The position numbers and the translations under genes are program-made. Shown in pieces: positions 9,482-20,913 of a DNA stretch of 64,000 bases. The notes under the pieces are model-generated. The model saw nothing but the letters and a program-made list of their open reading frames with translations. It ran no database searches and was not told the DNA's origin. How positions within the stretch are numbered: the first letter of the stretch is position 1; the number at the start of each line of letters is the position of its first letter. Origin of the DNA: an uncultured delta proteobacterium (lineage in GTDB: Bacteria; Myxococcota_A; UBA9160; SZUA-336); the NCBI GenBank assembly GCA_963704165.1, contig CAVPHD010000001.1:288001-352000 (forward strand), read 5' to 3'.

Positions 9482-10533
<1,052 letters not shown>

Positions 10534-18688: not shown

Positions 18689-20260
18689 TCAGAAGTCGCA
18701 GCAGGCGGGTGGCTCGGGCGAATTCACCGCCGCGTTGATCAGCGGGAACACCGCCGCGTCGTCGAGGCGGACGAAGGTCACGCCCGCCCCGCGAAGCGCC
18801 GCGATCAGCGCGGGGAGTTGCGCCGCGGTGTTGACCTGGCTGTCGTGCAGGATCGCGACGCCGCCGCCGTAGAGTGCGAGCCGGGTCAACGTCCAACCGA
18901 CCATGTCGCTCTGATACGCGGGCGGCAGCCAGCTCGCGTATGCCGGACTGCAGTACCCGTTCCCGATCGCGTAGCACCAGTCCAGCGTGTCGATGTGGAA
19001 GCCGACCATCGACAGGCCGTATTCGCGCACGATGCCAGCGCTCGCGCAGTTCGAGGCTGAGAACGGGATCCGGAAGAAGCGCGGATGGTGGCACGCGTCG
19101 CCGATCGCGAACCGGATGTTCTGGTTGGTCGCGTCGATCTCGCTTCGCATCTGCTCGACCGAGAGCGTCGTGAAGCGCGCGTGCGAGTAGGAGTGATTCG
19201 CGATCTCGAAGAGCGGGTCCGCGTGGATCTCGAGCGCGAGCGCCCGCGTCTCGGGACTCTCGAGCTTGTAGCCCACCATGAAGAACGTCGCGGGCACGCC
19301 CTCGTTGCGGAGCGTCTCGACGATCGCCGGCGTCGTGGCGAGGTTCGGTCCGTCGTCGAAGGTCAGCGCGACGCGGTACCCGAACGGGCCGGCATCGGGC
19401 GGGGGCTCCTGCGCGCACGAATACCCGCTGCCGGGATCGACCGTCGGCCAGTCGAGACAGACCGCCGGGCCGAAGAACGCGTCGATCCGCACGACCAGCC
19501 GCCCGCCGGCCTCGTCGACGAACGCGAACGCCGCGAGGATGTCGGCGCCTTCGGGCGCGTCTCCGGGCGGGTCGACCGCCACGAGCTCGCCCATCGACCA
19601 CTCGCGGAGCACTCCATCGCCGAGTCCGGCCCACGCAGGATCCGGGCTCGCGATGGCGACGAGGGCCGCGAGCGCGAGAGCGAAGCCGGCACGGTGCCTG
19701 CGGCGAGCGGCGAGCAGGGCGACACCGAGGAGTGTGAGTACGACCGGCGCCAGCGCCGGACCGGGAATCACCGGCACGGCCATCGAACGCAGCGCGATCG
19801 ACACCGCGGCTCCCTCCGCGGTCCCGGTCGTGGTCAGGAGCGCGTCATTCCCGGCCGGCGAATTCAGGGTGAAGTAGGCGTGGGCGACGGTCGCTGCTGG
19901 GATCTCCGCGAGCGGAAGCTGCGTCTCGATCAGCGTCGATCCCGCGATTCCATCGCCATCGATCACGGTCCACGGCGGCGACGGGTCGACGACGACCGGT
20001 GTCTCGGGTCCGAAGATGCCCGTGAGCGGTTCGACGCAGCTCGCGTGCGTCACCGAGATGACCTGCCTCGTGACGAGATCGACGATCGTCCGCAGAGACA
20101 GCTCGACGCCGGGCACCGTTCCGTCGGCGGTCACGATCGCGCAGCCGGTTTCGAGGTTTCGATCGAGATCGAGCCCGACGACGAGTTCGGCCTCGTCCGC
20201 GCGCACCTGGCCGGCAAGTGCAATTCCTACGACCAGAGCCCAACTCGCTGCGGTCTTCAG
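18689..20260 (-). CDS. Multi-module secreted/membrane polysaccharide deacetylase (NodB/CE4) with internal TM hairpin; probable CTG start
   Basis: CE4 motifs LTFDDGP, NHSYSH, FFRIPF, DTLDW, ILHD in the C-terminal half. Signal peptide (L/M)KTAASWALVVGIALAGQVRA lies upstream of the tracked GTG. Confidence 0.8.
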   Translation of the reverse strand: MKTAASWALVVGIALAGQVRADEAELVVGLDLDRNLETGCAIVTADGTVPGVELSLRTIVDLVTRQVISVTHASCVEPLTGIFGPETPVVVDPSPPWTVIDGDGIAGSTLIETQLPLAEIPAATVAHAYFTLNSPAGNDALLTTTGTAEGAAVSIALRSMAVPVIPGPALAPVVLTLLGVALLAARRRHRAGFALALAALVAIASPDPAWAGLGDGVLREWSMGELVAVDPPGDAPEGADILAAFAFVDEAGGRLVVRIDAFFGPAVCLDWPTVDPGSGYSCAQEPPPDAGPFGYRVALTFDDGPNLATTPAIVETLRNEGVPATFFMVGYKLESPETRALALEIHADPLFEIANHSYSHARFTTLSVEQMRSEIDATNQNIRFAIGDACHHPRFFRIPFSASNCASAGIVREYGLSMVGFHIDTLDWCYAIGNGYCSPAYASWLPPAYQSDMVGWTLTRLALYGGGVAILHDSQVNTAAQLPALIAALRGAGVTFVRLDDAAVFPLINAAVNSPEPPACCDF

Positions 20261-20541: not shown

Positions 20542-20913
20542 ATGCTCACCCGCCGAATCGCTCGATGCGCGCTGCTCTTCGCGCTGATCTGCGGATCCGC
20601 ACACGCCGCGACGCTCGACCTGGGCTTCGAGGCGTCACCCTTTGGCAGGCAGCCGCCGTCGCCCTCGGGCCTCGCGTTGAATTCGCTCTGGCTTCCTCCG
20701 ACCGCGAAGCTCCTCCAGATGCGCACGCCACTCGGTGGGCCGAGCTTCCGCCTGGACTCGTTCGTTCACGTCGCCTCCGAGATCGAGCTCTCGAACATGT
20801 CGCCGCGGTTCGAGTCGATCTTCGAGCACGACGACCTGCCGGACCTCGGACGGATCGGCGACGGCGCGGGCGGGTCGCGCTTCTCCACGGATCTGCTGGA
20901 TCCAGGCCTGTAG
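20542..20913 (+). CDS. Hypothetical secreted protein
   Basis: Clear signal peptide MLTRRIARCALLFALICGSAHA; no recognisable domain. Confidence 0.5.
   Translation: MLTRRIARCALLFALICGSAHAATLDLGFEASPFGRQPPSPSGLALNSLWLPPTAKLLQMRTPLGGPSFRLDSFVHVASEIELSNMSPRFESIFEHDDLPDLGRIGDGAGGSRFSTDLLDPGL

Follow-up and report, generated by a model that had tools for sequence, protein, structure and literature searches.

An internal IPTL-CTERM-like tag and a second signal-peptide-like helix within a predicted split N-terminal domain of a bacterial polysaccharide deacetylase

Introduction

C-terminal sorting normally fixes a protein by its tail and excludes cargo that needs a free distal C-terminus, such as the tips of long adhesins or RHS proteins. 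In the IPTL-CTERM/exosortase H system (TIGR04174, PF18203, TIGR04177) the tag consists of a motif, a transmembrane (TM) helix and a basic cluster, and the accessible part of one paper describes an S-layer protein that ends in an IPTL tag (PMC8671808). Tags of C-terminal type have also been reported from the middle of proteins. For Haloferax HVO_0405, a substrate of ArtA, central cleavage was shown and linked to lipid anchoring (PMC7157517), and for Myxococcus MXAN_5598, which carries an internal MYXO-CTERM, cleavage was proposed and such tags were said to work mid-protein (PMC11980579), as far as the available sections of both papers go. Transpeptidation by exosortases is suspected and not demonstrated according to the accessible part of a preprint (bioRxiv 10.1101/2023.06.07.544157). 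The NCBIfam collection further contains a family named 'midcut-by-XrtH protein' (midcut_by_XrtH, NF033207; 175 positions, cut-off 45 bits). In the literature searched we found no paper on midcut-by-XrtH proteins, on exosortases under the name XrtH, or on an exosortase with an internal tag followed by a second signal peptide.

We analysed a window of 64,000 nucleotides from the genome of an uncultured delta proteobacterium (contig CAVPHD010000001.1, positions 288,001 to 352,000), which encodes a polysaccharide deacetylase with such an internal tag. The deacetylase shares with HVO_0405 and MXAN_5598 a C-terminal-type tag in the middle of the protein. Those two proteins are two-gene fusions, as described in the accessible parts of the papers, whereas the tag found here appears to split one domain and recurs in hundreds of protein clusters with interchangeable cargo. 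The likeness to the IPTL-CTERM/exosortase H system lies in the order motif, TM helix and basic cluster, in the family consensus IPTLSxWG and in a co-occurring XrtH-like gene, but here about 160 residues precede the tag, a second signal and up to 3,400 further residues come after it, and the copy studied here stayed under all cut-offs.

Layout and reading frame of the deacetylase gene

The region 18689-20260 on the minus strand of the window was translated as one stop-free frame of 523 codons, in which we distinguished the following features:

20198..20260, minus strand: signal peptide 1, residues 1-21, ending in VRA; start codon uncertain
19778..20197, minus strand: domain A, residues 22-161, all-beta, with invariant Cys40 and Cys75
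19706..19777, minus strand: internal IPTL-CTERM-like tag, VP motif and TM helix 1, residues 162-185
19691..19705, minus strand: Arg cluster, residues 186-190; predicted to form a turn in the cytoplasm and the n-region of the signal that follows
19628..19690, minus strand: residues 191-211, a second helix that resembles a signal peptide and has AWA at its end
19475..19627, minus strand: module B, residues 212-262, with the pattern D-G-x4-W, D-P-x-G-D, D-I, R-x-D
19376..19474, minus strand: Cys/Pro linker, residues 263-295, with Cys268 and Cys282
18689..19375, minus strand: CE4/NodB-type polysaccharide deacetylase cargo with six further Cys and a free C-terminus without terminal anchor

A first-pass annotation had placed these elements in one frame, and the positions held on re-examination: the VP motif began at residue 162 (19777), the Arg cluster occupied 19705-19691 and AWA ended at residue 211 (19628). 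The hydropathy profile showed a strong stretch at residues 159-187 and a shorter one from 191. With 333 residues following the Arg cluster, the tag was not C-terminal, as it would be in an IPTL-CTERM protein. The CE4 deacetylase was intact, as had been claimed, with a PF01522 match at residues 296-419 (E 5.7e-25, 88.1 bits against a cut-off of 23.1), and five patterns that we take to be the CE4 motifs were all found, at 300, 356, 397, 424 and 471. Despite this likeness to CE4/NodB enzymes, the deacetylase scored under every NCBIfam equivalog cut-off.

Third-position GC ranged from 0.70 to 0.97 across the frame and the hairpin region showed no break. To include signal peptide 1 in frame, the gene requires either a CTG start at 20260, where GAGGG is found 4 bases 5', or an ATG start 11 bases 5' of 20260 in another frame, which needs a one-base slip in the assembly. 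Such a slip is possible at the gene start, since two downstream genes are frame-broken in the same assembly. An alkyl-sulfatase-like gene changes frame at about 17946 and an acyl-CoA dehydrogenase-like gene at about 16320 (both on the minus strand and labelled from their translations), each compared with a single-frame orthologue in genome G021, and both changes are probably assembly indels. The database gene call (P0002, 505 aa) starts from GTG at 20206 and has no signal peptide. Homologues carried a signal peptide matching signal peptide 1, and a hydrophobic 8-mer preceded the cassette in 135 of the 137 relatives with enough upstream sequence. The deacetylase gene aligned with its same-genus orthologue in a single frame. 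The observed layout is real and not an artefact of the assembly.

A portable N-terminal cassette with variable cargo

Residues 1 to ~245 make up an N-terminal cassette that is portable and has 904 relatives when sequences are clustered at 50%. A 17-sequence profile searched against 1.84 billion representatives gave these 904 matches at E<=1e-3, of which 234 reached E<=1e-30. We analysed 149 of 150 listed matches, leaving out the fragment P0008; after five partial rows were dropped, 144 full relatives remained, which together with the copy studied here make up the 145 full copies used for the counts below. All 145 retained both A and B, whatever their cargo. Among the 149 listed matches the cassette started at residue 29 (median), was followed by up to 3,408 residues of cargo and preceded a CE4 motif in just four. 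The whole layout was kept in six database homologues. Within the class, the profile matched 22 of 225 genomes, and translated loci showed CE4 behind the cassette, in the same single frame, at 13 other loci of 13 genomes. Other cargo in these genomes comprised Ig/cadherin with beta-helix, Big_5-like repeats, tyrosinase and frames of 570-1,630 residues without assignment. A random draw of 29 from the 98 matches longer than 600 residues consisted mostly of Ig/cadherin stalks, with RHS/teneurin in four proteins and no Pfam match in three.

The question of whether the cargo varies, which the first-pass annotation had raised, was thus answered by Ig/cadherin, RHS/teneurin, beta-helix and tyrosinase alongside CE4. 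The layout is not particular to the deacetylase, and tags in the middle of proteins have been recorded before (NF033207; PMC11980579 and PMC7157517 in their accessible parts). Word-based searches, which returned only CE4 relatives, had given the impression of a fixed CE4 cargo, and this was overturned by the full HMM search. Named members came from a Burkholderiales MAG and from Sulfidibacter corallicola and were labelled only as Ig-like or tandem-repeat proteins; the latter is a cultured carrier (WP_237381874.1). The ESM Atlas returned just unnamed or CTERM-bearing clusters at 0.88-0.90, which serve as leads only.

Several copies deviated from the common plan. In L070 (G105:C12) and L071 (G148:C17) repeats rich in Cys, Asp and Gly came after the cassette, and L070 also had a tyrosinase domain. 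P0102 carried an extra secreted domain of ~250 residues ahead of the cassette, an arrangement in which cargo can sit N-terminally too. Fragments of A only were seen at two class loci: in L027 (G118:C82:22314-25586) part of domain A was fused straight to the C-terminal end of CE4, and in L030 (G155:C10:3489-6725) the frame stopped within domain A.

The membrane hairpin: sorting tag, basic cluster and second signal

Across the 145 full copies the hairpin spanned 47-63 aa from the tag to B. The tag consensus was IPTLSxWG with Pro in 99%; [VIL]P occurred in 139 copies and [IV]P[TA]L in 87. Helix 1 was of TM grade in 144/145, a second hydrophobic stretch was equally frequent (144/145), and at least two basic residues lay between the helices in 138. 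The proposal that the Arg cluster doubles as the n-region of a second signal peptide was supported: the cluster leads into a second hydrophobic helix that is closed by [AVG]WA in 71/145, compared with 1/145 at the end of helix 1. A pattern test by Sec/signal peptidase I criteria found a basic n-region, a hydrophobic h-region and an AxA c-region all present. The broader AxA pattern discriminated less, with 96 copies at helix 2 against 49 at the end of helix 1. Of the two motifs whose lack of conservation the first-pass annotation had named as counting against it, [VIL]P was conserved and the cleavage site only in part, strict AxA missing from helix 2 in 49/145.

The claim that the internal segment is IPTL-CTERM-like was supported, by the profile scores of relatives and not by those of this copy. 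The tag of this protein gave no score on TIGR04174 or NF033207 and no match to the Pfam sorting models, PF18203 included. The cut-off of PF18203 was passed at the internal site by at least 6 of 29 relatives (among the matches shown, E<=1e-5) and that of TIGR04174 by 4 of 18. Judged by these profiles, the internal segment is a tag of IPTL-CTERM type; this copy diverges from the consensus of the family, which has the canonical IPTL form. The terminal tags of this genome are likewise divergent VP types, and the CE4 subfamily as a whole departs from IPTLSxWG. In the closest relatives (P0004 and L015) helix 2 is ~13 residues shorter, and several CE4-bearing copies have weak basic clusters. A terminal TM tag was found in 0/144 cassette matches, some of which are probably incomplete, and in 0/21 closed ORFs, compared with 5 of 15 proteins carrying the intact domain described below. 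A lipo-invert tail (invert_tail, NF058595) was rejected at 12.6-18.7 bits, reached in the hairpin region alone and under the cut-off of 37.

What the cassette has in common with the midcut-by-XrtH family is an internal tag of IPTL type with another hydrophobic stretch behind it. Thirteen of 18 relatives matched NF033207 over the hairpin at E<=0.01, and in a separate set 6 of 17 did so at E<=0.1. None of the 18 reached 45 bits, however (best 43.5), and this protein gave no match; the relatives' matches spanned positions ~20-117 of the 175, leaving the A and B flanks and the cargo outside. Since the matches cover the hairpin only and none passes, the cassette seems to work like midcut-by-XrtH proteins without being a member, a comparison based on the name, length, cut-off and matched positions of the family.

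Domain A and module B as predicted halves of one domain

An AlphaFold2 model of the 244-residue cassette (113 sequences; pLDDT 91.9, pTM 0.83) placed strands in A and B, with pLDDT 96-97 in module B, and between them two helices that form a helical hairpin. Mean-field covariation was supportive only at its depth of ~139 effective sequences over 230 columns; of the top 21 pairs, 8 joined A to B and 1 joined A to the similarly sized hairpin. Covarying pairs included D139-D230 between A and B as well as D230-D240 and D234-D240 within B, which suggests a metal site common to A and B. Three relatives (P0141, P0149 and P0154) lacked the D-P-x-G-D acidic loop of B and kept the flanking strands, and offer a natural test of the need for such a site.

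In this genome the B profile matched one other protein (G000:C2:113155-114831; L006, L078), which is secreted and consists of an intact DOMON/CBM9-like domain for which no Pfam model exists, an M23 peptidase and a VP-type tag at the C-terminus. The intact-domain family occurred in 16 of the 225 genomes of the class, its members differing in their C-termini, and 15 members were aligned. B matched residues 8-57 of the intact domain (hhalign probability 96, E 1.2e-9), and A gave a weak match to its later part (P 0.033, probability 1.5) that lay above all 40 shuffled profiles. The model of the intact domain (pLDDT 88.5) had Sas6, BACUNI_03838, CBM9, EbdC, glucodextranase and an Nxr subunit as its top six structural neighbours (Z 10.8-8.0), led by Sas6 7uwu (Z 10.8, rmsd 5.5, 163 aligned) and BACUNI_03838 4jpq (Z 10.4, rmsd 3.8, 157 aligned). 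Domain A alone aligned with residues 307-543 of Sas6 7uwu (Z 4.5, rmsd 3.9, 125 aligned). The Sas6 alignment started at 253 for the intact domain and at 307 for A, an offset equal to the length of B.

Each of these lines is modest. Taken together, the homology of B, the alignment of A, the offset, the model and the covariation favour a circular permutation: A and B resemble the two halves of a single DOMON/CBM9-like sandwich in permuted order, in which A is predicted to be the C-terminal part and B to supply the N-terminal strands. The fold of B's intact relative is that of DOMON/CBM9-like sandwiches (Sas6 7uwu, BACUNI_03838 4jpq, CBM9 1i82, EbdC 2ivf_C, glucodextranase 1ulv), from which the cassette differs in its reversed order, with A ahead of B, and in the membrane hairpin that interrupts it. 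Searches with the whole cassette returned no PDB sequence at E<=10 from the profile and no Foldseek match at E<=0.001 from the model. A wide VIA structural search gave only generic helical hairpins (Z<6), being dominated by the hairpin and leaving the beta part unprobed. The internal tag is already catalogued, but the literature searched contained no description of a permuted domain that is split by such a hairpin, or of the proposed split-domain N-terminal anchor.

Exosortase and export genes

A search of the genome for exosortases, suggested in the first-pass annotation, yielded three exosortase-family genes, including an XrtH-like one whose best NCBIfam match was XrtH at 74.2 bits, under the cut-off of 86; genomes of the same genus scored up to 88. 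One of the three exosortases carries a long C-terminal extension. An XrtH-like gene was present in 21 of 22 cassette genomes, the exception being 82% complete, compared with 127 of 225 genomes of the class. All cassette genomes belong to three families (f1, f10 and f11), in which 121 of 143 other genomes also have the gene. The co-occurrence is consistent with a role of XrtH and not independent of kinship, as these families mostly have XrtH anyway. The type II secretin (gspD) scored over its cut-off in this genome, which also encodes at least 12 PEP-CTERM-like proteins and about seven VP/IPTL-like terminal tags.

Proposed mechanism and alternatives

Our preferred reading, to which we give a rough probability of 0.55, is that of a cargo-swappable cassette in which A and B would form one domain over an excised hairpin, with the deacetylase tethered to the surface by its N-terminus. 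Signal peptide 1 would export domain A, and the invariant Cys pair fits such an export; conserved paired Cys on both the A and the B side suggest that both are exported. The IPTL-type helix would then halt transfer with the Arg cluster inside and helix 2 would restart export of B and cargo, a topology drawn from the positive-inside rule and from the helical hairpin in the model. Outside, the strands of B are predicted to complete the A sandwich, probably round an Asp/Ca2+ site divided between the pieces. Signal peptidase I would cut after AWA, and an XrtH-type exosortase would cut at the VP tag and give A a C-terminal anchor, probably lipid, by analogy with archaeosortase substrates. The resulting two-chain complex may cross the outer membrane via the type II system, given the gspD gene. 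The net effect would be that C-terminal anchoring is turned into N-terminal anchoring and the cargo keeps a free C-terminus. The cassette probably arose when two 'signal-domain-CTERM' genes fused in tandem and the outer half-domains were then lost. Generalized, the cassette could be an 'anchor inverter', a widespread split and permuted DOMON-like domain from which two proteases excise the hairpin and whose halves lock or are ligated by the exosortase; we consider the odds of this broader proposal to be even.

Other fates of the hairpin have to be weighed against this reading. Signal peptidase might cut after helix 2 and the exosortase spare the divergent tag, so that A would be held in the inner membrane with B and the enzyme bound non-covalently in the periplasm. 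The degenerate tag of this copy and the drift of the CE4 subfamily off the consensus speak for such a single cut, and CE4 enzymes acting on periplasmic substrates do not need surface export. Given that the tag Pro is 99% conserved, that terminal tags elsewhere in this genome diverge just as far and that an XrtH-like gene is present, we regard this as unlikely. It is less likely again that neither cut occurs and the hairpin serves as a permanent two-helix membrane anchor inside the permuted domain of one chain. The single-chain model is confident with the hairpin in place and strict AxA is missing in 49/145, but distant relatives carry protease-type motifs on both helices (IPTL; [AVG]WA 71 vs 1), and the second hydrophobic stretch, which is short, terminates in residues that are small or break helices.

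Both putative cut sites are found at one end of the helical hairpin, which would hold B adjacent, and a reaction resembling trans protein splicing is conceivable, in which the exosortase joins A to the new N-terminus of B and one soluble chain results from which the hairpin has been removed. Suspected transpeptidase activity of exosortases (bioRxiv 10.1101/2023.06.07.544157, accessible part) would fit, but related known enzymes attach lipid (PMC7157517, likewise in part) and the absence of any other anchor would be left unexplained, and such a ligation appears improbable. A shade less probable still is the model of the first-pass annotation, in which a single gene gives rise to a piece that is anchored and an enzyme that is set free. 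The conservation of both processing signals and known gene fusions with a tag inside (PMC11980579, accessible part) speak for it, but B covaries with A and supplies just three or four of the strands in a larger domain, and A and B occur together in 145/145 full copies irrespective of cargo. By prediction the N-terminal piece needs the ~55-aa module B for a complete fold, so the enzyme would most likely remain docked on the anchored part, and separate release was not supported. That the layout arose as an artefact, or as a recent chance fusion of two genes by sequencing error, has a negligible probability. The frame breaks in two neighbouring genes would allow for it; against it stand the same frame at 13 further loci with CE4, from 13 genomes, and in database proteins, the single-frame alignment with the same-genus orthologue and the 904 relatives, and the homologues with the same frame rule out the fusion error that had been considered at first.

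Under the preferred reading of an N-terminal tether, a cassette that reverses the anchored end would account for the retention of giant surface proteins, in their hundreds, that lack a terminal anchor. If the anchor inverter proposal is true, the cassette would display enzymes, adhesins of 2,000-3,600 residues and RHS proteins N-terminus-in, in several phyla. The cassette would also give an easy reporter for the exosortase H reaction, with a central cut and a large size shift, as HVO_0405 does for archaeosortase, and a natural high-affinity split domain could serve surface display.

Gene neighbourhood

A scan for promoters and terminators found none. The gene neighbourhood was kept in just one of five relatives looked at, a same-genus genome, so that a function based on an operon is not derivable, and no conserved polysaccharide operon was found around the CE4 gene among the five. 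Elsewhere in the window, the gene at 9670-10533 is split by appearance. A small ORF at 20542-20913 on the plus strand, divergent from the deacetylase gene, begins with a signal-peptide-like start.
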